DNA of 55,415 nucleotides from positions 1 to 55,415 of the forward strand of contig CBFGJG010000010.1 in the NCBI GenBank assembly GCA_965649055.1, written 5' to 3'. A program made the position numbers and the translations under genes. Origin of the DNA: a candidate division WOR-3 bacterium (GTDB lineage Bacteria; Hydrothermota; UBA3072; B12-G15). This document shows, piece after piece, positions 38,503-53,821 of this stretch (its first letter is position 1; every line of letters begins with the position of its first letter). The notes under the pieces were generated by a model that saw nothing but the letters and a program-made list of their open reading frames with translations, was not told the DNA's origin and made no database searches.

Positions 38503-39180
38503 TCAGTTTTCAAGATCAAAAGTTGAAAGTTTATGACTGACCCTACCTTCTTCTAAAAAAATTGTTCTTGTGCATGTCTCTTTTATAAGACCAATATCGT
38601 GTGATGCTATTATTACTGTTTCTTTAAGATTCTTTATTATATCTATCATCTTCCTTCTTATCTTTGGTGAGAGATTTGCAGTTGGTTCATCAAGGATTAT
38701 AATCCTTGGCTTCATTGATAATATTGTCGCTATTGCAACCCTTTTCTTCTCACCCAGGCTTAAATGGTAAGGGGAACGATGCTCAAAACCTTCAAGTTCA
38801 ACCAGACTTAATGCTTCTTTCACCCTTTCTTTTACTTCTTCTTTTTTTAGCCCCATATTTAGTGGACCATATGCAACATCATCAAATACATTTGTTGAAA
38901 ATAACTGGTCATCAGGTTCCTGAAAGACAAGACCAACCATTTTTCTTATCTCCTTGATATTTCTGTTATCAAGAATCCTATCAAATATCCATATCTCACC
39001 TTCACCTTTAAGTATACCATTAAGGTGTAAAAGGAGTGTTGTTTTGCCAGAACCATTCTCACCGATAATCCCTATCTTCTCACCTTCATAAACCTGAAGG
39101 TCTATACCTTTCAGGACATAATTTCCATCAGGATATCTGTAATGCAGATTTTTAATCCTTATAGCAGTTTTATTCTCCAT
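38503..39180 (-). CDS. nikO: ECF transporter ATPase NikO/CbiO; last residues encoded by a repeat copy
   Basis: GENGSGKT, LSLGEKKRVAIA, ILDEPT, SHD; C-terminal RVSHKLSTF is read from the 28-bp repeat at 38518-38545. Confidence 0.88.
   Translation of the reverse strand: MENKTAIRIKNLHYRYPDGNYVLKGIDLQVYEGEKIGIIGENGSGKTTLLLHLNGILKGEGEIWIFDRILDNRNIKEIRKMVGLVFQEPDDQLFSTNVFDDVAYGPLNMGLKKEEVKERVKEALSLVELEGFEHRSPYHLSLGEKKRVAIATILSMKPRIIILDEPTANLSPKIRRKMIDIIKNLKETVIIASHDIGLIKETCTRTIFLEEGRVSHKLSTFDLEN
38518..38545 (+). repeat. 28-bp GGGGTCAG-family repeat, distal copy
   Basis: AAAAGTTGAAAGTTTATGACTGACCCTA; 26/28 identical to the copy at 48387-48414. Confidence 0.85.
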
Positions 39181-39884
39181 AATCTCACGCATATTAATAC
39201 AGAAATTGATAAAATCAATGATATATAGTCTCTCTTTGAAAATCTCAATTCATTCATAGTTATAATCTCACCATTAAATCCCCTTGCGAGCATCGAATTA
39301 TAAATCCTTTCAGCCCTCTCATAAGACCTTATAAAAAGAACACCAATGATATTACCGAATACTTTTATTTGATTTATTATCCTTCCACCAAAGTATCTTG
39401 TATCCCTTGCCATTTTTAACTTCAACATCTCATCCATTATAACAAAAAGATATCTGAACATAAAAGAAAGCATCTGAATAAATATATCCGGTATCTTCAT
39501 CCTCTCAAGCCCTTTTAAAAGGCTTACAAAATCAGTTGTTGATGATAGCAAAATCATAGAAAGAATGGATAGGAATGTTCTTATTGCGATATTGTAAAAT
39601 ATAATAATCCCATCTTCCCTGAAAAATATATTGAATATAGAAATAAGGAGGACAAAAGGGATAATAACAAGCGACCTTGAAAATATATAACCCAATGGAA
39701 CATTTGATATAAGGATTAAAATAATTATAATGAAAAAATAAATGAGAAAACTTATGTAATCATTATTACCTGTTGTAATAATGTTTAATATAATTATTAT
39801 TGCGATTATGAATTTTACCCTTGGGTCAAGGGAATGAAGAAAACTTTTCCTATCAGAAAATCTGTCTATGAAAGAATGTCTCAT
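39159..39884 (-). CDS. nikQ: ECF transporter T component NikQ/CbiQ
   Basis: LDPRVK, FMFRY, RSYERAERIYNSMLARGF; start at 39884 gives an ATGA overlap. Confidence 0.88.
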   Translation of the reverse strand: MRHSFIDRFSDRKSFLHSLDPRVKFIIAIIIILNIITTGNNDYISFLIYFFIIIILILISNVPLGYIFSRSLVIIPFVLLISIFNIFFREDGIIIFYNIAIRTFLSILSMILLSSTTDFVSLLKGLERMKIPDIFIQMLSFMFRYLFVIMDEMLKLKMARDTRYFGGRIINQIKVFGNIIGVLFIRSYERAERIYNSMLARGFNGEIITMNELRFSKRDYISLILSISVLICVRLWRIKLL

Positions 39885-40165
39885 TTTCTCTTTATTATCA
39901 AAGAACCGGCAAGGAATGAAACACAAAATGTTATAACGGTCCCTATTATACCTGCTATTGATGTGCTTAATCTTTCGTTCTTAATGAATGGTAATGAATA
40001 ATCAGGTATAGGTGAATTTATCAAGGTCTTACCTTCCTGTTTTGATATAAATCCTTTATCTTCTGCAACCCTTTCAAGACCATCAGGTGAACTTGAAGCA
40101 AAAGGTGAAATGAAGAACGCAAGTATTAAAGAAACTACAAAAAATAAAATAAAGAAATTTCTCAT
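39881..40165 (-). CDS. nikN: PDGLE-domain protein NikN
   Basis: ASSSPDGLE, PIPDY, two TM segments. Confidence 0.88.
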   Translation of the reverse strand: MRNFFILFFVVSLILAFFISPFASSSPDGLERVAEDKGFISKQEGKTLINSPIPDYSLPFIKNERLSTSIAGIIGTVITFCVSFLAGSLIIKRK

Positions 40166-40177
40166 TTTTCCCCCTTT

Positions 40178-40816
40178 TTAAAATTTCTGAATCTCAAGTA
40201 AATCCTTCCTTGTCTTCATTATGAATAAAATGACTATTGTTGTTATCACACCTTCACCAATCCCTATAACCATATGTATAAAAGCCATAGCAGGTAATGA
40301 CACATTTATAGGTGTTGTTCCTGATAAAGCAAGCTGTATTGCACAGGATACACTTGCAAGAACAATCGCAAACCATGAACCTAAAAACCCACCTATAAAT
40401 AATCCTTTCTCATTCCTTAAAAGTTTTCTAAAAAAAAGATAGATAAAGAAACCTGAAAAAGAACCTATTATTCCCATATTGAAGATATTTGCACCTAAAG
40501 CAAGTATCCCGCCATCCTGGAATAATATCGACTGAATTATTAAGACAATTGTCATTATTATACTTCCTGTAAAAGGACCAAGAAGGATTGAAGCGAGTGT
40601 AGAACCCATAAAATGTCCTGATGTTCCACCAAGAACAGGAAAGTTCAACATCTGTGCAGCAAATATAAATGCAGATACAACACCTGTAAGAGGTATCCTT
40701 TTTTCGAAATCCGTCTTTTTATTTATCCTTGAAATTCCATATCCTATAAAACCCGCTGATATTACATTGAATGTAATCATTGTTTTTGTATCAAGAAAAC
40801 CATCAGGTATATGCAT
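40178..40816 (-). CDS. nikM: ECF transporter S component NikM/CbiM
   Basis: MHIPDGF metal-binding N-terminus, GTSGH, QDGG.LALGAN, HMVIGIGEG. Confidence 0.92.
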   Translation of the reverse strand: MHIPDGFLDTKTMITFNVISAGFIGYGISRINKKTDFEKRIPLTGVVSAFIFAAQMLNFPVLGGTSGHFMGSTLASILLGPFTGSIIMTIVLIIQSILFQDGGILALGANIFNMGIIGSFSGFFIYLFFRKLLRNEKGLFIGGFLGSWFAIVLASVSCAIQLALSGTTPINVSLPAMAFIHMVIGIGEGVITTIVILFIMKTRKDLLEIQKF

Positions 40817-40824
40817 AGAGCCTC

Positions 40825-41442
40825 CTAAAAGTTAAATGTTAATCCGGATGTTATCTTTATTTCTCTGTCATTGTTCATGGAAAAACCGATATCAGTTGAA
40901 AGTTTTTCAAACAAACTTAATCTTAAGCCAATAAGACCTTCAAATACAGATTCATCCGAAACCTTTGAAATAAAAATATCAGAACAAAAATTTAATTTTT
41001 CTTTTAAAGGTAATTCAATCGCAAATGAACCTGAAAAATTTTTAACATCAAATATATAAGCAATGTTGAGATGCCCAATAACATAACCAAAATCCTTTGA
41101 TAATATGAGATTAATACCGAATTCCCTGGATAAAACATTTTTTAAACCTAAAGATATATCAGGGATTTTTTCATTATCCTTCAATATTCCGCATTTGAAA
41201 ATTAATTCAGGTTTCCCGAAGGATTCAAAATCATAAGGCAGTGAAACACCAATATCAAACCTGTCAGTCAATCCATGCTTTAATTGCAGATAGGTTTCCC
41301 TTGACCATTCACCAGACCTTGTTAAATCAAAACCAAACTCAAATTCAAAAAGACCTTTTTCAACAATCCCTGCATCATCCGTTATCAAAGGACGGGCTGC
41401 AAAAACAAAAACCGGGATAAAAAACAAAAGAATAAACCTCAT
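40825..41442 (-). CDS. Putative outer-membrane beta-barrel ('transporter' family)
   Basis: Signal peptide ending VFA, ARPLITDDAGIVEKG.FEFE start, alternating beta-strands, terminal GLTFNF. Confidence 0.7.
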   Translation of the reverse strand: MRFILLFFIPVFVFAARPLITDDAGIVEKGLFEFEFGFDLTRSGEWSRETYLQLKHGLTDRFDIGVSLPYDFESFGKPELIFKCGILKDNEKIPDISLGLKNVLSREFGINLILSKDFGYVIGHLNIAYIFDVKNFSGSFAIELPLKEKLNFCSDIFISKVSDESVFEGLIGLRLSLFEKLSTDIGFSMNNDREIKITSGLTFNF

Positions 41443-41455
41443 AAATCCTCCTTTT

Positions 41456-41481
41456 TATTACATTTTTTAAATTTTGTAATA
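41456..41481. promoter_or_regulatory. Putative NikR operator 1
   Basis: TATTACA-N12-TGTAATA immediately upstream of the OMP-nikMNQO SD. Confidence 0.75.
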
Positions 41482-41502
41482 CATAATAATAAAAAAAATT
41501 AT

Positions 41503-41907
41503 TCATAAAATCCTTGTTATGCTTAGCGAGCAGTGTTTAACACCTTTTATATTCCTTATATTATCCATCAGTTCTTCTATATCTTTTCCATCGCCTTTTA
41601 CGACGATAACTTCAAGGCAGTTTTCTTCATCAAGGTGTATGTGTAAGGTCGAAAGTATCATCTTATGTCTTGAATGTTGAACATCAGTTAATCTGCTTTT
41701 CAAATCCCTTCTATGATGGTGATATAAAATTGTTATAACACCAAAGACATCCTTACCTGAAACATATTCCTTCTTTATTATCTCGTTTCTTATAATATCT
41801 GTTATTGCCATAGATTTTGTCTTGTATTTTTTCTCTTTTATAAAATCTTCAAATCTTTTTAACAATTCTTCATCTATGGAGAATGATACACTCTTCCTCT
41901 TTATCAT
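41503..41907 (-). CDS. nikR: Nickel-responsive regulator NikR
   Basis: RHH N-terminus; VQH...HIHLDEENCLEV nickel ligands intact. Confidence 0.95.
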   Translation of the reverse strand: MIKRKSVSFSIDEELLKRFEDFIKEKKYKTKSMAITDIIRNEIIKKEYVSGKDVFGVITILYHHHRRDLKSRLTDVQHSRHKMILSTLHIHLDEENCLEVIVVKGDGKDIEELMDNIRNIKGVKHCSLSITRIL

Positions 41908-41916
41908 ATTCTTTCC

Positions 41917-41944
41917 TTATTACAAATATAAAATAATGTAATAA
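41917..41944. promoter_or_regulatory. Putative NikR operator 2 (autoregulation)
   Basis: TTATTACA-N12-TGTAATAA between the nikR -35 (TGTCAA 41952-41957) and its start codon. Confidence 0.75.
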
Positions 41945-42008
41945 AAAAATTTGTCAATTTTTTTCTTGACAAAAATATTTTAAAAAATAAATTTAATATA
42001 CGAAAACA

Positions 42009-42058
42009 GGATGGAAAAATTCATGAAAGGGGGTGATGATTTTGAATTTATTCCATCC
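42009..42058 (+). promoter_or_regulatory. Hairpin in the 5' leader of the 1.5-kaa secreted protein gene
   Basis: GGATGGAA-AAATTCA pairs with TGAATTT-A-TTCCATCC; 19-nt loop containing AAAGGGGGTGA; TTGACA at 41966. Confidence 0.5.
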
Positions 42059-42105
42059 AGAGGTTTATTGTTTTTAGGTTTAAAAACTTAAAAATGGAGG
42101 TTTTT

Positions 42106-45100
42106 ATGAAGCGTTTTCTTTTTGTCATTCTTTTTATTGCGGTGATATCCATTACCGCAAAAGAAATTCCTGAACCTGTTCTAACGTATGGTAAGGTGAA
42201 TATCATTGGTAATGCTAAAGCTGTAGCGCCTGTATTTGATACGAGTCGTATTTTTATTTCAGGTGGTACTACCAGAGAAGTGGCTATAGGAACAAATTTC
42301 AAGGATTGGGCAGATGACACGATAAGGGTAATAGGAATTCAGTCAGGTTCTCCAAGAAACCTTTATATCTGCACGGATACATCCACAACGGTATTTGGTG
42401 ATAACAAGTTCAGGATAGAAACACCTTATTCATTCGTTGCCTCAAGTATGCCTAATGCAGTTGCAATTGGCCAAATTCACATAATGGATTTACCAAGTAT
42501 ATTTGTAGGTCAGTTATACACACCTTATAGTTTCTTCAGATTCCAATGGGACGCAACAATCCCCGGATGGGCATTGAAGGATTCATTCTCGGTTGGAGAC
42601 TCAATAAATGATATTGCAATAGGTCTTATATCAAGTAATGAATACCCTGATATCTTTATCGCAACATCAAGAATTTCACCATCTTCACAGATACTGTGGC
42701 TAAGATGGAATGGAACTATGATGGGATATGATTCATTAAGGATTTATCTTACAGGAACACAAAGGGTGAAAGGGGTTGCGGTTGGAGATGTCCGTCCGGA
42801 TATACCGGGTGATGAAGTCTATGTTGTAGGTGGAACAAACCTTTGGATGGTCTATTATGATGGTCTTTCAGCATCATGGCAGTCTGAACTTATAACAAGT
42901 GGTCTTTCATCCTGCACTGATGTTGCAGTAGGCGATGTAGACCCGACATTACCGGGTAATGAAGTGGTTATTTGTAATTCAAGCTCAAGTTATCAACTTT
43001 CAATTTTATCTTATAGTGGTGGTTTATGGAGTGGGATATTATGGAATATTACAGGTGCAGCAAATGCTACAGAAGTTGCTGTTGGTGATGTTATGTTAGA
43101 TAATCCCGGTAATGAAGTTATAGTTGTTTTTGCATCAACTACCGTTAATCCAAGGCTATTCTGGTATGCACCAAACAGGACAGCTTGGGCAATGTCACTT
43201 CCAAAGAATGTTTCATCCACAACCGATTATGGTATCGCAATTGGTGATGTGAATAAATTCAGAAATGTTAATTATGAATATGTCCTATCAGGTGGTAACG
43301 GATTTTATGAAGGTGAACAGATACTTGTTCCTTTAAATATAGGAACATACTATTACAATATTGACAAACCAATATCAATAAAGAATGTTCCTCAGCAGAT
43401 AAATATGGTTATATTCAATGCTGGAGAGAACCCTGCAACTGGTTTTACATACGGATATTATTTAAAGAATCATCCTTATATAAGCAATACATATATATAT
43501 TCTGGAATTTTAAATCCAAATACCTATGTTAATGTCACAATGGATTTCATTCCTGACTTTGATGGATACGATACTATCTTTGCCTATGTCTTTGACCCTG
43601 CTGACCCAATTCCATTTAACGATACAACGAAACTGCATCTTGAAGTCTGGGATGATTCAACAGTCGCTGCATCTGGATTTAACTCAGCAGTATTCCCACC
43701 TATAAATGGAACAACCTATGATGGAATATTAGGTTCTAATTATAAATGGACAAGGTATATTATAAGTGGCTCTTATAACTGGCTAAGGACAACCGCACCC
43801 ACATATCCATCTGCACCTGTCCTTGAAGGATATGGTGTTGCATCTTACCCATGTTATAATGCTACTTCAGGTTCTTCTGCAAGGCTTCTAACACATAAAT
43901 TCAATATAGGTCCTGTTGCAAGGAAGGTAATCCTTGATTTCTATATGTATCATGATAACGGATATTCGGGAAATCTTGACTCCCTCTATGTTGAATATAG
44001 TTATGATACATTAACATTCAATACACTTACAGGTTTCCAGAGATATTATGGGACGAACGGATGGCAGAAGCATACTGTTGAAATAGGTGATTTTTCAGGT
44101 GGGACTGAAATTTATGTCGGTTTCAGGGCAGTCTCAAAATTTGGTAATAATATCTTTATTGATTCTGTCCGTGTATTCACAACAACACCAACTGCACCTG
44201 CAACAGATGCAGGTATTATTGCTGTGAAACTTCCAAATCCACCATATTTTGTAGGGCAGAGTTATCCTGTAACAGTTACAATAAAGAATTTCGGTCTTGA
44301 CCCATTGACATTCTGCCCTGTTTATTATAATTGGGGTAAGAACATAGGAACACCGGTAGGTGAGATGTGGACAGGTTATCTTCTTGCTAATCAGACTGCT
44401 GATTTTACATTCTCTTTACAGTGGACACCACAGGACCCTGGGATTGATACAATATGGGCATGGACGGACTTGCCAGGTGATATGGTCCCGGCTAACGATA
44501 CATCTTATAAAGAGGTTAATGTCTGTCCTGAATACCATATCCCACCATACTCAGAGAACTTTGAAGGTGATTGGTTAAACTCAACGAAACCACCTTTCTG
44601 TGGATGGACTATTATAGATGGTGGTTCCGAGACACCGAATATTGTGAATAACAATGACTGGCATAAATATTTATTGAGCGCAACATACAGGAATAGCAAT
44701 GTTGCAAGGATATACTGGTCTCCTGTTGAATGGTCTGATGACTGGCTTATTTCACCAAGGTTCAACTGTTCAGCATATGGAACATACACATTGAACTACT
44801 GGCATTATTATAATGATTTTGGTACATCAAACTTGGATTCAGGTAATGTGATGCTTTCAACAGATGGTGGTTTAAACTGGACAAGGATAGCATTATATCA
44901 GAATGCAGATGATTCAGGGTATAAAACAATAGATATAACACCTTATGTTAATGGTGAGCCTTTTGTCAAGATAGGTTTCTGGTATGTTGCAAATAATGAA
45001 TGGTACTGGTATATTGACTCATTCTCAATTGATTTTGTCCCTGACAATGAACCACCTACAATAACATTTGACCAGCAGCCACAGAATACATACAATAATG

Positions 45101-46779
45101 GTCCATATCCGGTAAGGGCAATTATTAGAGATATCTCAAAACCGATTTATGCAACATTGTATTCTATAGTAAATGATGAGCTTGATACAATATACCCAAA
45201 TTCGATAATTGAAGATACATTCACATTCTATATTGATGATGTTTCTCCTGGAACTGTGATTGAATATTCTCTATATGCAGAAGATGCAGCAGGTAATGGC
45301 GTATCCACCAATTCCTACAGGTTCTTTAAGCTCGCACCACTTGGTCAGGATACTATATTTGCAACTGCACTGCCGGATTCAAGTGTATTACTTGAATGGT
45401 TTAATCCTTATGAATTCCTTGCCTATGATGATGGTCCATACATTGCTGGTTCGTTTGGACCAAATTATTATTTTGCCACACAATTCACACCACAGTATTC
45501 ACCGGTAAGGCTGATAGGTTTTGCTTCATATTTCTATACAGATGCACCACCTATTACTGATTCATTAAGGTTTATTGTATGGGATGATAACAATGGAATT
45601 CCTAACATTGAAATATTTGATACCACGATTGTTCCATTGAATTATCCACAACTTACATACGTAGACCTTTCAGAATACAATATTGTTATTCCATCAGGTG
45701 ATTTCCATATAGGCTGGCAGTATTACAATTCAATCTATCCATTTTCAGTTCTGGATGATGGTTCTAACACCACAAGGTCAAAATATAGTGATGGAACAGA
45801 CTGGTGGCCATTAGAATATGATGTATGCACTTATGCCTTTGTTGAATATCTACCACAATCAAAGTCCAATACAAATTCAGTTGTTGCAAATCTTCCAAAA
45901 GGTGAGAAGAGATTCGAGTTTATAAAGATTCCTGACATCTATGCAAGGAATGCAAAAAGACCTGTATTCACACCTAAGAATATCAATCATTATGAAGTAT
46001 TAAGAAGGGATATAATGGGTGGACCATGGATAACAATAGGAACACCGAATACGAATTCCTGGATAGATAGCCCGCTTAATCTTGTGAACCATACAATATA
46101 CCAGTATGCAGTCCGCACTGTCTACACTTCACCTGATAGTGTTTCTGAGATTTCACCATATAGGGAGATGGTAATAGACTGGTCACCACCGCAGTATTCA
46201 AATCTATTCGTTGATAGTGTCCAGAACTATCTCTTACCTTCTATTGAGATATTTGACTTTATCTGGTATCCACCTGAAGAACCACTACTTTTTGATTCAC
46301 TCTTCTACTCAATAAATGATGGACCATTTGTAGGTGTTACACACGATAGTATGACAACTTCTTATCCGTACAGGTTCTATTACACAATTCCATTACAGAC
46401 AAAGGTTCCAACGAATGTCAAATTCTACTTCACATCTGCTGATAAGAGTGAATGGGCAAATACCGGGAGAGACCCAGTATCTGGATACTATGAGACAACT
46501 GTTGGAATAACAGAAATTATTCCTGATAAACTCTTCTTAAAGATTTCAAGCCTTGTATCCGGAAGATTGGATATAGAATTTGGATTACCGAAGGCAACAG
46601 ATGTGAAATTCTCAATATACAACACACTTGGACAGAAGATAACAACGATTGACAAAGGCAAGATGAAGGCAGGATACTACAATGAAAGGATAGAACTGAA
46701 TATACCGAATGGTATATACTTCATAAGGCTTGAAACAGGCGAAGGTAAGATAATAAACAAGTTAATCAAGGTATTCTAA
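42106..46779 (+). CDS. Large secreted multidomain protein (FG-GAP-like propeller, CARDB/Ig-like, cleaved-adhesin-like domains, T9SS-like CTD)
   Basis: GGAGG then MKRFLF signal peptide; repeated VAVGDV..PGNEV; DDWLISP; C-terminal IYNTLGQKI...NGIYFIRL...KLIK. Confidence 0.8.
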   Translation: MKRFLFVILFIAVISITAKEIPEPVLTYGKVNIIGNAKAVAPVFDTSRIFISGGTTREVAIGTNFKDWADDTIRVIGIQSGSPRNLYICTDTSTTVFGDNKFRIETPYSFVASSMPNAVAIGQIHIMDLPSIFVGQLYTPYSFFRFQWDATIPGWALKDSFSVGDSINDIAIGLISSNEYPDIFIATSRISPSSQILWLRWNGTMMGYDSLRIYLTGTQRVKGVAVGDVRPDIPGDEVYVVGGTNLWMVYYDGLSASWQSELITSGLSSCTDVAVGDVDPTLPGNEVVICNSSSSYQLSILSYSGGLWSGILWNITGAANATEVAVGDVMLDNPGNEVIVVFASTTVNPRLFWYAPNRTAWAMSLPKNVSSTTDYGIAIGDVNKFRNVNYEYVLSGGNGFYEGEQILVPLNIGTYYYNIDKPISIKNVPQQINMVIFNAGENPATGFTYGYYLKNHPYISNTYIYSGILNPNTYVNVTMDFIPDFDGYDTIFAYVFDPADPIPFNDTTKLHLEVWDDSTVAASGFNSAVFPPINGTTYDGILGSNYKWTRYIISGSYNWLRTTAPTYPSAPVLEGYGVASYPCYNATSGSSARLLTHKFNIGPVARKVILDFYMYHDNGYSGNLDSLYVEYSYDTLTFNTLTGFQRYYGTNGWQKHTVEIGDFSGGTEIYVGFRAVSKFGNNIFIDSVRVFTTTPTAPATDAGIIAVKLPNPPYFVGQSYPVTVTIKNFGLDPLTFCPVYYNWGKNIGTPVGEMWTGYLLANQTADFTFSLQWTPQDPGIDTIWAWTDLPGDMVPANDTSYKEVNVCPEYHIPPYSENFEGDWLNSTKPPFCGWTIIDGGSETPNIVNNNDWHKYLLSATYRNSNVARIYWSPVEWSDDWLISPRFNCSAYGTYTLNYWHYYNDFGTSNLDSGNVMLSTDGGLNWTRIALYQNADDSGYKTIDITPYVNGEPFVKIGFWYVANNEWYWYIDSFSIDFVPDNEPPTITFDQQPQNTYNNGPYPVRAIIRDISKPIYATLYSIVNDELDTIYPNSIIEDTFTFYIDDVSPGTVIEYSLYAEDAAGNGVSTNSYRFFKLAPLGQDTIFATALPDSSVLLEWFNPYEFLAYDDGPYIAGSFGPNYYFATQFTPQYSPVRLIGFASYFYTDAPPITDSLRFIVWDDNNGIPNIEIFDTTIVPLNYPQLTYVDLSEYNIVIPSGDFHIGWQYYNSIYPFSVLDDGSNTTRSKYSDGTDWWPLEYDVCTYAFVEYLPQSKSNTNSVVANLPKGEKRFEFIKIPDIYARNAKRPVFTPKNINHYEVLRRDIMGGPWITIGTPNTNSWIDSPLNLVNHTIYQYAVRTVYTSPDSVSEISPYREMVIDWSPPQYSNLFVDSVQNYLLPSIEIFDFIWYPPEEPLLFDSLFYSINDGPFVGVTHDSMTTSYPYRFYYTIPLQTKVPTNVKFYFTSADKSEWANTGRDPVSGYYETTVGITEIIPDKLFLKISSLVSGRLDIEFGLPKATDVKFSIYNTLGQKITTIDKGKMKAGYYNERIELNIPNGIYFIRLETGEGKIINKLIKVF

Positions 46780-46808
46780 AAAAGGGGGCTTTAAGCCCCC
46801 TTTTTTTT
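46778..46808 (+). terminator. Rho-independent terminator
   Basis: AAAAAAGGGGGCT-TTA-AGCCCCC-TTTTTTTT right after the stop codon. Confidence 0.9.
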
Positions 46809-46835
46809 GGGGTCAGTCATAAACCTTCAACCTTT
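46808..46835 (-). repeat. 28-bp repeat, left inverted copy
   Basis: TGGGGTCAGTCATAAACCTTCAACCTTT, the exact reverse complement of 47757-47784. Confidence 0.95.
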
Positions 46836-46839
46836 CTCC

Positions 46840-46868
46840 TTGACATTTATAAAATTTTAAAATAATAT
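46840..46868 (+). promoter_or_regulatory. Transposase promoter, probably leaderless
   Basis: TTGACA (46840)-17-TAATAT (46863), ATG at 46874. Confidence 0.6.
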
Positions 46869-46873
46869 TTCTT

Positions 46874-47779
46874 ATGGCAAGAAGCGTAAGAATTGATTTT
46901 GAAGGTGCTATTCATCATGTTATAGTTAAAGGAAATAATGACAGGGCAATATTCCTTGATGAAGATGATAATGCTTCTTTCTTGAAAAAATTATATGAGT
47001 TTTCCCAAAAATATCCTTTTAAGATATATGCATATTGTCTTATGAAAAATCATTTTCATCTTTTAATAGAAACAGGGGAAGAACCATTATATCTTTTTAT
47101 GCAAAGGCTCCTTACAAATTATGTCCAATGGTTTAATAAAAAATACGAACTTAAAGGACACCTTCTTGGTGATAGATACAAGGCAATACTTGTGGATAAA
47201 GAGAATTATTTCCTGACAGTTCTTAGATACATACACTTTAATCCAGTTAAGGCAAATATAGTTGAAAATATAGAAGATTATAAATGGTCAAGTTATAATG
47301 AATATATAAACAAAGAATGGATTGTTTCAAAAGAAGAAGTATTATTACATTTTGATTCATTAAACGAGTTTATAGAATTCCACAAACCAATCATTATAGA
47401 AGAACCAGAATTGAAAAAGGTCAAAAATATCCTATTTTATGGAGAAGATTCTTTTATACAAAATATTCTTGCGAAGAAAGGCAAAGATGAAAGAAAAGAA
47501 AAAAGAAAAGTGAAGATTGAATTTTATCATCTTGAGAAATTCTTGGAAGAAACATTCAATGTGAATTTAGATAATTTAAAAAAACATCAAAAAGGATTCG
47601 CAAAACAATATGCAATACTTATCCTGAGGGAAAGACTCCATCAAACATGGGAGGAAATTGCAAAATATTGGGATGTGACTCCACAGGCAACAAAAAAAAT
47701 CTTTGATAAAATTTTGAATAAAGAAGAAAGATTAAAGAAATTTGATGATTGGGTAAAAAGGTTGAAGGTTTATGACTGA
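46874..47779 (+). CDS. REP-associated-type tyrosine (HUH, Y1) transposase with C-terminal HTH-like extension
   Basis: YAYCLMKNHFHLL (HUH), GHL..RYK, RYIHFNPVKA (catalytic Tyr), YKWSSY; C-terminal TWEEIAKYW helix; last codons lie in the repeat. Confidence 0.92.
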   Translation: MARSVRIDFEGAIHHVIVKGNNDRAIFLDEDDNASFLKKLYEFSQKYPFKIYAYCLMKNHFHLLIETGEEPLYLFMQRLLTNYVQWFNKKYELKGHLLGDRYKAILVDKENYFLTVLRYIHFNPVKANIVENIEDYKWSSYNEYINKEWIVSKEEVLLHFDSLNEFIEFHKPIIIEEPELKKVKNILFYGEDSFIQNILAKKGKDERKEKRKVKIEFYHLEKFLEETFNVNLDNLKKHQKGFAKQYAILILRERLHQTWEEIAKYWDVTPQATKKIFDKILNKEERLKKFDDWVKRLKVYD

Positions 47780-47784
47780 CCCCA
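47757..47784 (+). repeat. 28-bp repeat, right inverted copy; contains the transposase stop and the yggS start
   Basis: AAAGGTTGAAGGTTTATGACTGACCCCA. Confidence 0.95.
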
Positions 47785-48395
47785 TTGTTGTGGCAGCAAC
47801 GAAGTATTTTAAGAAAGAAGAAGTTTTGAAGATTATTGATGGAGGTATCATACATATCGGAGAAAATTATGTGAAGGATTTTTTAGAGAAATATTATTAT
47901 GTTACGGGGAAGACAGATAAAAAAATCTACTGGCATATTATAGGACATTTACAGAAAAATAAAGTGAAAAAAATTATAGATATAGTTGACTTTATTCAGA
48001 CACTTGATTCTATTGAACTTGCTGAAGAGATAAACAAAAGGGCAAAAAAGAAAATATCGTGCTTTATAGAGATAAATAGTGCTAAAGAAGAACAAAAAAC
48101 AGGGATATTCCCCGAAGATGTCTTTAATTTCGTTGACGAGATAAAAAAATTTGAGAATATAAAGATAGAAGGTGTTATGACCATGGGACCAAATGTTGAA
48201 AATATAGAAGATATAAGACCATACTTTAAACTTACAAAGGAGATTTTTGAAAAATTAAAAGAAGACAAAGATATTGGTAAAGATATTAAATATCTTTCAA
48301 TGGGAATGTCAGATTCTTATAAAATTGCTATAGAAGAAGGTGCAAATATGATTAGAATCGGAAGAAAAATCTTTGATTTCCTAAAGAAAGGTTGA
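47772..48395 (+). CDS. yggS: YggS/PLPBP pyridoxal-phosphate homeostasis protein, N-terminally shortened
   Basis: AATK (PLP Lys), GENY, WHIIGHLQKNK, LSMGMSDSY, EGANMIRIG; in-frame stop at 47763 precludes a longer N-terminus. Confidence 0.92.
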   Translation: MTDPIVVAATKYFKKEEVLKIIDGGIIHIGENYVKDFLEKYYYVTGKTDKKIYWHIIGHLQKNKVKKIIDIVDFIQTLDSIELAEEINKRAKKKISCFIEINSAKEEQKTGIFPEDVFNFVDEIKKFENIKIEGVMTMGPNVENIEDIRPYFKLTKEIFEKLKEDKDIGKDIKYLSMGMSDSYKIAIEEGANMIRIGRKIFDFLKKG

Positions 48396-48415
48396 AAGTT
48401 TATGACTGACCCCAA
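48385..48415 (+). repeat. Repeat copy containing the yggS stop codon
   Basis: AGAAAGGTTGAAAGTTTATGACTGACCCCAA; 30/31 match to the reverse complement of 46807-46837. Confidence 0.95.
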
Positions 48416-48536: not shown

Positions 48537-49052
48537 ATGGTGCTTTTACTTTTTTGTGTAAATGTTTTAAATGATGTGTTACCTATGGAAAAGGTCCCTT
48601 TAAATGACTATGTTATACCTTTCAGGCTTCCTGAAGAACTTACAAAGGGTTATACAATTCCTAAACTGATAACCGATTATGGAATGTTTTATAAGGAAGA
48701 TATTGTTAGTTTTCTGAAGGTTGAAGATAATCTACCTGTTGTTTCAGGAAAATCAATCGGACAGGTCCTTACATTGAGATCAGGTGAGCATGATGTTGAT
48801 ATTAAAGATGAAGTTGAAAGATGTTATCTTGAAGCGATTATATTTAAAAACACACTGCCATTTATACAGGAACTACAGGAATTATCCAAAAATACAGTGG
48901 ATAAAACGGATATTGAATCACACAAGGAACTGGAAAGGAGAAAATTTGAAGGAAAGACGAAGATAATGATGAAGAGAAATGAAGAATTGACAAGGATTAA
49001 GAGTGAGGCGAAGGAAAGGAAGGAAAAAAGGATTAAAGAGGAAGGGAGGTAA
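48537..49052 (+). CDS. Hypothetical protein
   Basis: GGGAGGT SD, short hydrophobic N-terminus, charged helical C-terminus; 2 nt upstream of the S8 protease gene. Confidence 0.6.
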   Translation: MVLLLFCVNVLNDVLPMEKVPLNDYVIPFRLPEELTKGYTIPKLITDYGMFYKEDIVSFLKVEDNLPVVSGKSIGQVLTLRSGEHDVDIKDEVERCYLEAIIFKNTLPFIQELQELSKNTVDKTDIESHKELERRKFEGKTKIMMKRNEELTRIKSEAKERKEKRIKEEGR

Positions 49053-49054
49053 AG

Positions 49055-52000
49055 ATGGCTTATTTATTCTTAATTCTTTCTATAATAAATCCAAAATTAC
49101 AGGCGAAACTTGATAAAATGAAGTCAGATGATGTTATAAATATAGTTATCCAGCTTCCTTCTGCTGATTATAATTATGCCTGGAAACTGAAATCAGAAGG
49201 CTATGACCCATTTGCCTACTTAAAAGAGTTCTGTTATTCAACACAGCAACCGTTTGTTGATTTCCTTATTAAAAATGGTATTAAAAAAGATGATATTATA
49301 CAGCTTTATATTGCAAACAAGATAGGTGTTCATAATGTTCCTAAAGGACTTGTATTAAGTCTTGAGAATGAGCTCGGGAAAAATACAGTTGATATTAGGG
49401 AAGATGAAGTTGTTGCACAAATTCCACCAAATGAGACATATGTTCCTTTAAGTAATTTCTTCCCAGGTGAAGATTATGTTTCTCCATCACAGGAAAATAT
49501 AAAGACACCGCATCTCTGGGCAAAAGGATATAAGGGAAATGGAATAGTGATTGCAATTATGGATACAGGTGCTGATATATTGAATTGCCCGCAGATAAGG
49601 CACAGATGGAGGAAGCAATCTGGATGGTATTATGCAGCGAATCCTACTGGTATTACAACACCACAGGATACTTTTTCAAACTCAGGATACCATGGAACTG
49701 CATGTTCTGGATTGGCAGTTGGTGAACATGGAATAGGTGGAGCACCTGGTGCTACTTTAATTGTCTGTGGAATTATGGATGCTACAGAGGCACAGATGAG
49801 TTTGGCATATCAAAGGCTTATTAATTATGATACTTTAAGGCCACATATAACATCAAACTCCTGGGGTTTTACATCTACACTTGTTACTTCTTTCTGGGAT
49901 GAAATGCAATCCCAGATGCTTGCAAATATAATAACAGTGGCAGCAGTTGGTAATAGTGGGCCGAGTGCATCTACGGTCACACCTCCTGGAAGTTACCCTA
50001 TGGTGATTGGTGTTGGTGCAACATACTGGGATGAGGAATGGGTAACTGAATATTCTTCAAGGGGTCCTGCACCTAACCAAGCCCCTTGGACCGATACACA
50101 ATGGTGGCCAAGGTCTGATTGGGATAGACATAAACCTGATATTATTGCACCAGCTGAGCCTACAATTACGATAATGGCAGGTGGGAACTGGCAAACATTC
50201 TCAGGAACATCTGCTGCAACACCACATGTCGCAGGTGCACTTGCTTTGATACTTCAGGCAAACACATTTGGAGAATATCAGGATACTGCAAGATTAAGAA
50301 GGATATATAGGTTAATCACAGATTATGCATATCTACAGGGCGCTATAACAACATGGCCAAATGACTCATTTGGATGGGGAAGGATAGATGTTGAAAAAAT
50401 ACTTAATAATCTACCTGAACCAAAGGTTCCACATATATTTATATCCAATGTTCGTGTGAAAGACCATAATAATAACACATTATCATCGGGTGAAGTTGAT
50501 ACACTTTATATAACATTAAAGAATACCGGTGCTAATGCGACGAATGTGGTTGCTGAAATTGTTTATAAAGACCCATCAGGTATAAATATTAATGATGGTT
50601 CAAGTTCTTATGGAACTTTGAACAGGTTTGAAGAGAAAGAGAATTCATCTTCTGATAGATTCCTGGTAACTATGCCTGTAATGGGTGATACTGTCTGGAC
50701 ATACTGGACATTGAGGATAAGGTTCCAGTATACAATTGATGGTGTAACAAAGACAGATACAATCTGGGATTGTTTCCACCTTGTGAGTGATTTTACTAAT
50801 AAACCAACATACAGGGATACATTAAGAAATGATGATGGAACAGCTACTACTTATTACTCAGCTGCATATTGTGCCGCTCAGTTCTCTACGCCATCCTATG
50901 ATACTATTATTGCTGTAAAATATCTTTTATATCAGGGTGCTGGGACTGTTTGCACATTGATGGTCTGGAATGATAATAATGGTTTACCACAAGACCCACC
51001 TGTGTATACTCAGGCTTTTACAGCTGACTCTGTTTACACAAACTGGAAGACTGTCTGGTTAACTACAAAACCTGTGATGAGTGGCAATTACTGGGTAGGT
51101 GTCTGGACACCACAAGGTGCGGCAACATATCCTTTATCTGATAATGGTGCATCTGGTGTTATGGCTTTTAAAAATCAGGGTGGTAGTTGGAGTATAAATA
51201 CTACTGGTGATTTCATGTTTAGACCTTATGTTGGAAGGAATCCAGTTTCGACTCCTTTAATAAGGTCTTTATCATATAATATAAACGATAAAGAATTTGG
51301 GAATGATAATGGTATTATTGAACCTTCTGAAAGGGTTGGACTTTACATATCTTTGAAGAATCTTGGCGTTAATGCTATTCAATGCACATTATGGCTTGTA
51401 AGAGCGGATGCCTATACACAGTTAAGGGTTACACCCATTGATACAATATCATATATAAAAGAGATAAATAACGGGATAGATGTTGCGAATAACTATAATG
51501 ACCCCTGGATTATTCAATTCTGGGATAATGATTCATTACAGAGTAGGAATTTAAATTTTAAGGTAAAAATTAAAGGAAGATATGGAACAGGTTCAACATA
51601 CACAGATTCATTCAATATTGCAGTAAGGGAGCCTTTTGTTCCAACATGGGGCGATACATTTCTTTACAGATTTGGCTCAAGTCCAAGTGGATATTTATTT
51701 ATAGGTTCTGGAAATTCTGGAACAACTACATATTGGGCAACCAGGTTCTATTTTGGGAACTCAAGGTATGACTCATTTTATATTGATTCTGCATATATTC
51801 GTGCATACAATGATGGAAGTACAGCAAGAACAATGTATTTTTATCTCTGGCGCGATAGTGTCGCAACAGGTTTTCCCGGTGATACATTTTGCCGTGCTTC
51901 ACTATCGGTTAATGGAAATACTTCAAGTTTATGGAGGCTACTACCAAGGGTTCGCTATCTCCCGGGTTATGTCTGGTATGGACAGAATTGTATAATTGCT

Positions 52001-53821
52001 ACTACAGGAACAGGGCTTAAAGTGCTTCTCTGGGAGGCACCAAATATTGCAGATAAGACTTATTACAGCTCTTCTTGGAGAAACTGGGCACCTTCAGGTG
52101 CTACCTTTTGGGGAAGAATGCCTATTACTTATTCAATCTGGATAAGACACGACCATCCAACTCTTTCTTATTATAGACCTTCTTCTTGGACATGGCCTGC
52201 TGTCTTAACAAATACATCAGGGACACAGACATTACCAACAATTATAAATGGATGCTGGCCTGGTCAGACAATATATTCACATATGGCATTCATAAACCGC
52301 TCAACAAGGAATATAAATACAACAAGCCCAAGGACTGCAAGGGGGACATGGGAAAATCATTTCTTCCTTGATAATCATTCAAGATGGTATGGAACTGCAA
52401 CAAACCTTAACCAATATACAACTTTAACTTATGTAAATCAAACTATTTATGTCCCAGGTGGAAGGCATACTGTGATGCTTTATGGTGATAGAACAAACAA
52501 TGTTATGGGTAATGTTATGAATGTTCAATACAGATTCTGGGGAAAGCAGTATTCATTAGCAGCACCAAATTTCCCTTCTGATTCATCAATAAAAGAACCC
52601 TGGGTCCCACCTATGACAGGACCTTTTGCAGGTGATTACCCAAATATCACTGCTTATAAACTGAAATTCCCGGGAACAAACACAAAATACTATTGTTTTG
52701 CAGTCCGTCCTATAAGGATGAATATTGCATCAGATACTATTGATATCGATATTGAAGTATATTCTGATTTCCCGACCTCACCTTACAATGGATATACAAA
52801 TTTCATAATTGGTTCAGGGCTTGGTCCTGGAAAGGTTGATTTCGTTGTTTTCAATGATAAGAATTATGATTCACTTGCAGCAGGTATATATAACTTCCTT
52901 GATGCAAGGGATTCTGCATTCGTAGATTTCAGGGCAGGTAATAAATACATAACAAACTGGTCTTCTACAAGGGTTGCAGCAGCGGTTGATTCATTTAAGA
53001 GCGCAAAGGATGTTGTGAAGGTTTATAACTTCGTTGTTCCAACAACTGCACAATATGCCTGCTCTGTAAAATCACTTGCAGGAACAAATGTTGGTATTGC
53101 AATATTCCCAAAAGGGAGTATCTTCTCCCGTTCAAGGGCACTAAAAGAAGATGACGATGGTGGTGCAGGTGTTATGGAAGGATTTGCAAATATCTCACTC
53201 ACTGCCGGTGATACACTTGCTGTTGTTATCTGGAAGAATGATAACTATGAGGCTAAAGCACCTGTTCCCTGCTCTCTCTTCATAAGGAGACAATCAGATG
53301 GTTATTATGGTGGCCAACCACTTTCAACACACCTGATAGAACTTTCATATTTTGCAACATATGAAGGTGTGAATATAATGTTCACCACCTACAATATTGA
53401 ATATGTTGAGATATACAGAAAATCTGATAATTCTGACTATGAACTTATAACAAAGACAAACAGTTCACCATTTATTGATAAGAATGTTGAGAATGGAAAG
53501 ACATATGATTACAGGTTGAATTTTGTCTTCACTGATGGATACAACGAAGAAAAAACATTCAGTATAACATATTACGGGATAACGAAACTTGATATCACTT
53601 ACGATACAAAGACAAATAGAATGATTCTTTATATACCAAAAGATGGTGAATACAGGGTCTCAATATACGATATAACTGGAAGACTGATTACTGAACCTAT
53701 TTCAGGGAATCAGAAATATGGCATATTAAGGATTCCTGTTGATATAAAAAATGGTATCTATTTTGTGGTTGCAGAAGGGAATAAAGAAAAGAAGATACTG
53801 AAGATCCCGATAATCAGATAA
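49055..53821 (+). CDS. Large S8 (subtilisin-family) serine peptidase with T9SS-like CTD
   Basis: Triad IAIMDTG / YHGT / SGTSAATPHVAG, oxyanion AVGNSG; C-terminal IYDITGRLI...NGIYFV. Confidence 0.9.
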   Translation: MAYLFLILSIINPKLQAKLDKMKSDDVINIVIQLPSADYNYAWKLKSEGYDPFAYLKEFCYSTQQPFVDFLIKNGIKKDDIIQLYIANKIGVHNVPKGLVLSLENELGKNTVDIREDEVVAQIPPNETYVPLSNFFPGEDYVSPSQENIKTPHLWAKGYKGNGIVIAIMDTGADILNCPQIRHRWRKQSGWYYAANPTGITTPQDTFSNSGYHGTACSGLAVGEHGIGGAPGATLIVCGIMDATEAQMSLAYQRLINYDTLRPHITSNSWGFTSTLVTSFWDEMQSQMLANIITVAAVGNSGPSASTVTPPGSYPMVIGVGATYWDEEWVTEYSSRGPAPNQAPWTDTQWWPRSDWDRHKPDIIAPAEPTITIMAGGNWQTFSGTSAATPHVAGALALILQANTFGEYQDTARLRRIYRLITDYAYLQGAITTWPNDSFGWGRIDVEKILNNLPEPKVPHIFISNVRVKDHNNNTLSSGEVDTLYITLKNTGANATNVVAEIVYKDPSGININDGSSSYGTLNRFEEKENSSSDRFLVTMPVMGDTVWTYWTLRIRFQYTIDGVTKTDTIWDCFHLVSDFTNKPTYRDTLRNDDGTATTYYSAAYCAAQFSTPSYDTIIAVKYLLYQGAGTVCTLMVWNDNNGLPQDPPVYTQAFTADSVYTNWKTVWLTTKPVMSGNYWVGVWTPQGAATYPLSDNGASGVMAFKNQGGSWSINTTGDFMFRPYVGRNPVSTPLIRSLSYNINDKEFGNDNGIIEPSERVGLYISLKNLGVNAIQCTLWLVRADAYTQLRVTPIDTISYIKEINNGIDVANNYNDPWIIQFWDNDSLQSRNLNFKVKIKGRYGTGSTYTDSFNIAVREPFVPTWGDTFLYRFGSSPSGYLFIGSGNSGTTTYWATRFYFGNSRYDSFYIDSAYIRAYNDGSTARTMYFYLWRDSVATGFPGDTFCRASLSVNGNTSSLWRLLPRVRYLPGYVWYGQNCIIATTGTGLKVLLWEAPNIADKTYYSSSWRNWAPSGATFWGRMPITYSIWIRHDHPTLSYYRPSSWTWPAVLTNTSGTQTLPTIINGCWPGQTIYSHMAFINRSTRNINTTSPRTARGTWENHFFLDNHSRWYGTATNLNQYTTLTYVNQTIYVPGGRHTVMLYGDRTNNVMGNVMNVQYRFWGKQYSLAAPNFPSDSSIKEPWVPPMTGPFAGDYPNITAYKLKFPGTNTKYYCFAVRPIRMNIASDTIDIDIEVYSDFPTSPYNGYTNFIIGSGLGPGKVDFVVFNDKNYDSLAAGIYNFLDARDSAFVDFRAGNKYITNWSSTRVAAAVDSFKSAKDVVKVYNFVVPTTAQYACSVKSLAGTNVGIAIFPKGSIFSRSRALKEDDDGGAGVMEGFANISLTAGDTLAVVIWKNDNYEAKAPVPCSLFIRRQSDGYYGGQPLSTHLIELSYFATYEGVNIMFTTYNIEYVEIYRKSDNSDYELITKTNSSPFIDKNVENGKTYDYRLNFVFTDGYNEEKTFSITYYGITKLDITYDTKTNRMILYIPKDGEYRVSIYDITGRLITEPISGNQKYGILRIPVDIKNGIYFVVAEGNKEKKILKIPIIR

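Follow-up and report, generated by a model that had tools for sequence, protein, structure and literature searches.

The window analysed here is the whole of contig C10 (CBFGJG010000010.1, 55,415 nt) of G000, a candidate division WOR-3 bacterium genome (GCA_965649055.1; 2.08 Mb, 31.6% GC, 85 contigs). It carries a Y1 HUH transposase gene (46874..47779, + strand) bounded by short terminal inverted repeats (TIRs), further copies of which are dispersed through the genome. The left TIR (46808..46835, −) and the right TIR, R1 (47757..47784, +), form a perfect 28-nt inverted pair, reading GGGGTCAG. The transposase stop codon lies inside R1 and overlaps an ATG in frame with yggS/PLPBP (47772..48395, +), the sole copy of that gene found in the genome. 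A second right TIR, R2 (48385..48415, +), supplies the yggS stop, so that yggS lies between two direct TIR copies; R2 and positions 46807-46837 form a 31-nt inverted pair (97% identity) that also encloses yggS. The tip of R2 is 123 nt ahead of the next gene. A solo copy (38518..38545, +) lies at the end of a cbiO/nikO gene, its tip at 38544 facing right into that gene. Gene calls were simple open reading frames (ORFs), and start positions are therefore rough. Among contigs from three hot-spring read sets (depth ~2-10), one piece covers the R1 transposase/yggS joint (47533-48252) with 0 differences, though possibly not independent of the source DNA.

The 301-residue enzyme contains the Y1 HUH domain PF01797, with H60, H62 and Y136 invariant across 11 sequences. 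Its best Foldseek matches were TnpA-REP 4er8 and the IS200/IS605 TnpA 2vic, and a structure model showed a helical C-terminal extension of four helices. The match to NF047646 scored 74.8 bits, below the cut-off of 80. PF08299 was found in many homologs and the DnaA match was weak for the paralog on contig C13; the window protein itself had no helix-turn-helix (HTH) profile match. The gene is single copy in the genome, where two further elements of the same type encode paralogs 43% and 28% identical to it, each between its own repeat family. The closest named homolog (62%) carries the label candidate division WOR-3. Of 26 class genomes (G000 and 25 others), 21 have homologs (58 matches), at three to nine genes per genome, each with its own ends. 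Inverted ends were present at 32 of 35 homolog loci, comprising the loci returned for 30 of the 58 matches and 5 from fetched regions.

The window element is a TIRtron, encoding a TIRYT of TnpA-REP subclass 2.1, and thus belongs to a described family that is not an integron. In the text covered here, Di Nocera et al. (2013, PMC3733652) describe TIRtrons as a Y1 HUH gene between long inverted repeats (GGGGWSAS) that are not repetitive extragenic palindromes (REPs), with a TIR overlapping the 3′ end of the gene, dispersed single, dimeric and grouped TIR copies, and several TIRYTs per genome with different TIRs. The HUH gene and GGGGWSAS ends, the 3′ overlap, the dispersed copies and the several TIRYTs are all shared by the present element, and the first-pass annotation had correctly named a family with such ends. 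Subclass 2.1 comprises long proteins with a C-terminal HTH/DnaA_C-like extension and no REP hairpins, and is the second largest subclass (Quentin et al. 2018, PMC6006769). It equals group 1 (bioRxiv 2020.03.09.984088) of the REP-associated tyrosine transposases (RAYTs), the group most like insertion sequences (ISs) (Bertels et al. 2017, PMC5581495). The portions of these sources covered leave its function open and show no target or mechanism; the long protein without REP hairpins is the shared feature.

Several other element types were considered and rejected. A REPtron, or a RAYT of groups 2-3, was set aside as no GTAG-tagged palindromic REPs flank the gene and the repeat does not fold. IS200/IS605 was rejected on the single copy, the distance of the paralogs and the lack of a hairpin, and IS91/ISCR on the Y1 family and the symmetric inverted ends. 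For an integron, the adjacent enzyme is HUH and there is no IntI at the locus (no IntI search was made in the rest of the genome), nor are there a palindromic attC and a co-oriented array of promoterless cassettes. The first-pass annotation had held the system to be more like an integron than an IS. This was not supported: the sites are non-palindromic, dispersed and in both orientations, the adjacent enzyme is not of the IntI type, tip-facing genes have their own promoters and many are housekeeping genes (purD-, tilS-, rtcB-, mtaB- and waaF-like), and an intact gene junction holds a solo copy in at least one case. Other TIRYT subfamilies of the class have different ends, either palindromic repeats of ~40 nt or non-CCCC tips (L052, L055, L056, L057, L049, L063, L064, L227). 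Searched with the one protein, metagenome and genome collections yielded 4 and 2 distant loci, which lacked these TIRs.

The four window copies of the repeat, here family A (38518, +; 46808-46835, −; 47757, +; 48387, +), are as real as first claimed, with 0 matches in 100 shuffles. The repeat is indeed non-palindromic, with minimum free energies of −0.3 to −1.5 kcal/mol (z −0.05 to 1.3, 4 copies) and no fold. A single 28-mer had been proposed for all four; the copies are there, but that at 38518 ends in CCCT and has 3 mismatches to it. The left TIR consists of two tandem 7-mers followed by a CTGACCCC tip, and the same layout was found in 10 of 12 TIR families tested (shuffle p < 0.05). We infer that tandem 7-mers and tip are the layout of a binding site plus a nick site. 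Directly inside the left TIR lies a sigma-70-like promoter, TTGACA-17-TAATAT (46840..46868, +; a consensus match only), 5 nt before the transposase ATG. Transcription from this predicted promoter (46840-46874) would start near the ATG and give a leaderless message. The TIR 7-mers adjoin its −35 box, an arrangement that makes autorepression possible.

A genome-wide search placed the four window copies in a family of 31. The TIRs of the three G000 TIRtrons number 31, 9 and 22 copies (62 tips), at 51 sites on 25 contigs and in both orientations, and tips are clustered beyond chance, 63% having a neighbour within 10 kb against 32% expected. Family-A copies are mostly solo. Most G000 copies have no partner, a position weight matrix scan added only 2 convincing degenerate copies, and the inner homology common to copies is usually below 45 nt outside hairpin arrays. 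[quoted passage not shown] Two-ended MITEs of 80-690 bp occur in G000, G002, G003 and G024. On the tip side, joints are sharp, and target duplication was absent at 24 outward pairs (one 4-nt and two 1-nt matches). No exact TIR match was found in viral contigs, and a plasmid collection gave 3 weak matches.

Some further details of the repeats were seen. Tips also occur nested directly behind repeats of a different family (A in C, C in B, A in B; G000 C11:9529-9565, C18:1226-1257, C20:12480-12511, C11:37581-37608, C36:145-179), and G000 C28:3209-3292 is a hybrid A/C mini-element. Another repeat, ~40 nt long, is found inward of two solo A copies and also where one hairpin array begins (window:38456-38495; G000 C2:887, C2:30385). 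Short tandem duplications or stuttered part-tips occur just past several tips (window:48419-48457, an 18-mer twice; the right tips of L044, L046, L047, L140 and L142; 8-mers in G016/G018). TIR copies adjoin CRISPR arrays: at G000 C5:185-211 the inner edge lies against a repeat, and at G003 C33 (L189:1-1219) the tip is ~50 nt from the last repeat.

The relation of tips to rearrangements was examined in two congeners, G002 and G003 (genus g3), which are 85-94% identical in DNA and have a related TIR family plus a second one, D. Five MITE-type sites of G003 were compared with G002. Two sites, on contigs C45 and C79, had both flanks mappable, and in each case the flanks fall within two different G002 contigs; for the C79 break, one reciprocal gene could not be found in G003. 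The C33 site has on one side a CRISPR array that G002 lacks. At C28 a single gene has tips joined to its first and last codons, and 225 nt before and ~490 nt after it are gone relative to G002. The C46 site is shared with G002 and colinear. Whole MITEs lie at several breakpoints, and decayed ends are present. MITE copies are only 68-86% alike, so that assembly chimeras through them are unlikely.

Of nine junctions not chosen for tips, six carry TIRYT tips: 3/6 in G002 (beside gene 268, gene 358 and eutN, but not at a radical SAM gene, radC or X|Z) and 3/3 of those found in G003 (ffh/Z, a radical SAM gene and X). The binomial probability is 6e-5 at 10% background and 0.01 at 25%, for junctions that are not independent. 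The X/Z case is the clearest. Genes X and Z are adjacent in G002, with no TIR between them. In G003, X homology ends 6 nt before a tip, and the Z promoter is joined to ffh through a solo TIR of ~30 nt. As judged from these flanks, this is the geometry of an inversion between inward-facing tips. Cargo was also seen: on G003 C84 an MntA-type toxin-antitoxin pair, not found in G002, lies between direct TIR copies, and the corresponding G002 site has a single decayed MITE. Another four contigs of G003 (54 kb; the four longest of 20 fetched, two of the four with a known tip elsewhere) were colinear over ~45 kb, with no interior translocation. Identity between G002 and G003 reaches 99% in one gene beside a MITE (L161:305-1153 vs L142:425-1273), compared with 85-94% elsewhere, which hints at recent transfer. 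A gene shared by two genera has a TIR tip facing its promoter in both (G000 C4:82014, G003 C33:1499), and in G002 and G003 the tips that face eutN-like genes belong to different families, possibly through repeated targeting.

A second genus, g4, gave a polarised case. Of 13 congener loci with a metallo-β-lactamase (MBL)-fold gene, 11 have a convergent xth behind it and 2 are unresolved; a tip is present at none. In G004 this gene lies left of the TIRtron. Its homology runs out 5-7 nt short of the tip, its last 7 codons are read from the repeat, and a different block comes next; five congeners have this right flank, either 250 kb distant or on separate contigs. By this comparison, the G004 break is derived and is at the tip. 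No break is presumed for the TIRtrons that separate hypF from hypC (G010) and ecfT from truA (G024), gene orders that we take to be ancestral. Besides the G003 C84 pair, genes between direct TIR copies are yggS in the window and those at G024 C140 (a TIRtron site) and G024 C222, and no cargo was found twice with its TIR. The expectation that tips coincide with synteny breaks was thus borne out in part: such breaks occur in two related genera, twice polarised by relatives without the tip, but there are also breaks without tips and a tip without a break. Tips at breakpoints in two genera likewise favour the idea of portable joining sites that rearrange host modules, although the enzyme's part as their cause is presumed.

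In the window, each copy lies at a gene or functional boundary, as the first-pass annotation had noted. In cbiO/nikO (38503..39192, −), which encodes an ATP-binding cassette ATPase, the last 13 codons and the stop are read from the solo repeat, and homology to a solved CbiO of 275 residues ends at residue 218, at the tip. YggS begins MTDP inside R1, aligns to TIGR00044 from model position 31 only, and lacks ~15 N-terminal residues of its relatives; its last few C-terminal codons are replaced too, with the stop in R2. Two coding ends had been reported as cut at tips. Both were, but the count was incomplete, a third end being rewritten by the stop of yggS inside the 48387 copy. On the left of the element, a GC hairpin with a T run (46784..46808, +), terminator-like and read by eye, is joined directly to the left tip; this terminator tail, named earlier for the upstream gene, is visible by eye but was unflagged by a terminator scan.

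The tips at 38544 and 46809 point inward, as described before, on an 8.3-kb block. It holds a cbi/nik energy-coupling factor transporter operon with nikR (38503..41907, −) and a 1561-residue secreted protein with a Por_Secre_tail domain (42094..46779, +). CbiM was not found in the 25 other class genomes, a NikO search in 5 relatives at E 1e-40 gave no match, and the N-terminal half of the secreted protein was not found in the 25 relatives; this protein has a paralog on G000 C27. By comparison, putA, outside the block, is present in 8 of the 25. The two halves of the block differ in GC content (31.4% vs 37.5%), and the block is lineage-specific but may consist of two pieces. To the right of R2, a gene for 171 residues and a 1588-residue S8 peptidase gene (48537..53821, +) form a pair that is conserved in G002 beside a different gene, presumably BamA-like. 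Two very large secreted proteins (37% GC; 42094-46779 and 49055-53821) flank the element, the first without a Pfam match beyond its C-terminal sorting domain. In G002 and G003, yggS lies behind a homolog of window gene 1417-2139. The window features would fit capture or rearrangement at tips. Synteny is a weak test here, because the nearest genomes are of other genera (~50% amino acid identity), the neighbours of putA differ in each relative and those of yggS vary.

Hairpin arrays provided a further view of the tip. In G000, 73 hairpins with TGTC (65) or CGTC (8) feet form 20 arrays, 16 of which lead to a family-A tip 75-158 nt further along, all in the same orientation; of the other four, two stop at a contig end and two belong to longer arrays as their upstream parts. 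No array has a TIR at its other end. The DNA past the tip differs between copies, except for an A tip nested in a C repeat, and the tip is therefore the end of the moved unit. The hairpin units had no Rfam match. Their stems match the text description of CGTC REPs (an 8-9 bp stem opening with AT), for which a CCA-like tail is also given, the comparison being with the text. In the text covered, CGTC repeats are said to have no dedicated transposase (PMC3733652), whereas the CGTC/TGTC-type arrays found here end in a TIR tip, which makes the TIRYT a candidate mobiliser of CGTC repeats. A GIY-YIG gene inside one array is a rival mobiliser.

Placement of tips relative to genes was also analysed. 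Nearly all outermost tips (56/58) face an ORF of at least 120 residues. Tips facing a stop codon lie within 15 nt of it in 18 of 24 cases (nulls 8.6% and 32%), and tips facing a start have TTGAC[AT] within 30 nt in 15 of 32, with 11 of these 15 lying 10-13 nt away (nulls 6-15%). TIRtrons and their extra copies supplied 29 ends, of which 4 write the neighbour's stop and 2 have the stop at the tip. Seven offer an in-frame ATG to the outward gene (yggS, mtaB, truA and, by reading, genes for a haloacid dehalogenase (HAD) hydrolase and mnmA and two unknown genes), with another possible start within 12 codons in 6 of the 7. Tip-facing genes have housekeeping and accessory functions (66 proteins, a subset of neighbours). 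The control was the ends of an unrelated multi-copy IS in G000 (26 copies; window:79-95), which breaks the assembly at 22 of 170 contig ends. Boundary hugging was rejected as TIR-specific evidence, as the control ends did not differ significantly.

Taken together, the comparisons suggest that these enzymes, beyond making copies of themselves, shuffle host genes and fuse them. It seems somewhat more probable than its negation that the TIRtron enzyme treats each TIR as an independent one-ended joining site. In such a scheme the C-terminal helical domain would bind the 7-mers, and the HUH/Tyr site would nick single-stranded DNA at the tip and join it to a new A/T-rich target, in an IS608- or IS91-like strand transfer with one specific end; the nick-and-join step would follow IS200/IS605 and IS91 chemistry. 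With a nearby target, DNA would be deleted up to the next stop codon or promoter, where selection would halt the creep. With a distant target, a block would be inverted or translocated. A circle of tip and inner DNA could bring in a solo repeat, an array of hairpins or a gene behind a tip already in place, giving L-tiryt-R1-cargo-R2, as for yggS. One reaction, with a fixed tip and a variable inner end, would cover solo copies, erosion to stops and promoters, inward pairs, cargo and one-ended arrays. Where a tip has taken over a host start or stop, clean loss of the element would no longer be possible, which may explain the persistence of single-copy TIRYTs. A bolder version, which we regard as unlikely, would have TIRYTs as domesticated one-ended recombinases and the 28-nt TIR, made up of a binding pair of 7-mers and a nick tip, as a self-sufficient attachment site, with promoter-to-stop modules cut out, circularised and re-inserted. 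They would then be an HUH-based, dispersed counterpart of the integron and the missing mobiliser of CGTC arrays, self-locking via host start and stop codons.

Alternatively, the TIRYT may only insert two-ended TIRtrons and MITEs, host homologous recombination making the inversions and translocations and solo tips being decayed MITEs. The existence of two-ended MITEs in four genomes, of whole MITEs at several breakpoints and of decayed ends is as this would predict. We nevertheless consider it rather unlikely, given that most G000 copies have no partner and few degenerate ones could be found, that the inner homology is short and MITE copies diverged, that hairpin arrays are tipped at one end only, and that breakpoints fall at the outer tip, inside codons. 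Coincidence under selection would require no role for the tips at all: in a compact genome, insertions and rearrangements would each survive only at transcription-unit boundaries. Control IS ends do hug boundaries, and breaks without tips occur. Yet tip sites fill only 51 of the 585 gaps in G000, tips were at six of the nine unselected junctions, and they cut into coding sequence exactly at the break, so that this account is improbable.

Equally improbable, in our estimate, is gene capture of integron type that benefits the host, with the TIR as att site, gene plus TIR as cassette and the TIRYT as domesticated integrase. Genes do lie between direct TIR copies by the enzyme gene in G000 and twice in G024, there is accessory cargo absent from a congener, tips cluster, and the 8.3-kb block is lineage-specific. 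Against this, there is no long co-oriented array at the enzyme gene but a dispersal over 51 sites; many tips face housekeeping genes that have promoters of their own; no cargo recurred together with its TIR; and the presence of several TIRYT genes in one genome, each having distinct ends, suggests a family of elements.

One-ended joining at each TIR, the reading we prefer, has a number of observations to its disadvantage. Control IS ends lie near stops in 6 of 14 cases (Fisher p 0.08 vs tips) and near −35 boxes in 4 of 12 (p 0.5); this pattern therefore reflects selection and is by itself no sign of capture. On the four colinear G003 contigs, 2 of 5 decidable discontinuities were at tips, the toxin-antitoxin pair being one of these two, and 3 were without. 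At the G019 TIRtron junction, 12 congeners without tips show 6 kinds of right-flank neighbour, and some sites are therefore hot spots in any case. On G000 C16 a solo repeat lies between two glycosyltransferase-9 (waaF-pair) genes that are adjacent in G001 without the repeat, and there is no break. The TIRtron and one MITE common to G002 and G003 are colinear, and activity is therefore low. The 3′ end of the toxin-antitoxin pair occurs a second time, with no TIR next to it. Two loci had suggested an 8-nt duplication rule, which failed (3/61 vs a 4.5% null). G003 is a metagenome bin, 75% complete, and the background tip density in G002 and G003 is an estimate only. The three low-depth hot-spring contig sets held no credible joint at a tip, and are uninformative on circles or inversions. 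Finally, the support is from genome comparison.

Among known systems, the IS200/IS605 TnpA and E. coli TnpA-REP (4er8, 2vic; PMC3479197) share the fold, the HUH/Tyr chemistry and the lack of target duplication but, in the text covered, recognise hairpins, whereas the window repeat does not fold. TnpA-REP enzymes of the same subclass accompany prochlorosin genes, for which diversifying recombination was proposed from genome structure (bioRxiv 10.1101/2020.03.09.984088); the causal claim was withdrawn in an authors' note. That case, in the portion covered, differs in concerning one gene family in cyanobacteria, with no analysis of TIRs and breakpoints. The text of the TIRtron paper covered here (PMC3733652) has no link of TIRs to breakpoints, no gene-end fusion, no cargo between direct copies and no 7-mer anatomy. 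In the literature searched, which excluded most subscription journals, figures and supplements, TIRYTs appeared only in the 2013 and 2018 papers, and no paper linked TIRs to breakpoints, gene fusion or capture.

One-ended transposition is a property of IS91/ISCR, and adjacent deletions and inversions are made by IS26/IS1. These elements share with the present one a single fixed end, a variable other end, carriage of adjacent genes and blocks bounded by inward ends, but they have Y2 or DDE enzymes, are multi-copy, and do not disperse their ends as 30-nt solo copies. Integrons also have some genes between direct site copies by a recombinase gene, but with IntI, palindromic attC and an array of promoterless cassettes, which the window element lacks at its locus. 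The family is known, and what is new is the comparative evidence on what the element does.

These results bear on what RAYT-like transposases do and why single copies of them persist, in a subclass that is the second largest and for which the literature covered shows no activity. They give a concrete putative substrate, the 7-mer pair and tip, and a predicted joint of tip to A/T-rich target without duplication. The predicted products are adjacent deletion, inversion, solo insertion and cargo between direct copies, all testable with oligonucleotides and a plasmid. If homologous recombination does the rearranging, this would be ordinary IS biology in a new family. An enzyme that is compact, needs a single short site to join DNA and comes in naturally orthogonal enzyme/site pairs could serve as a tool.

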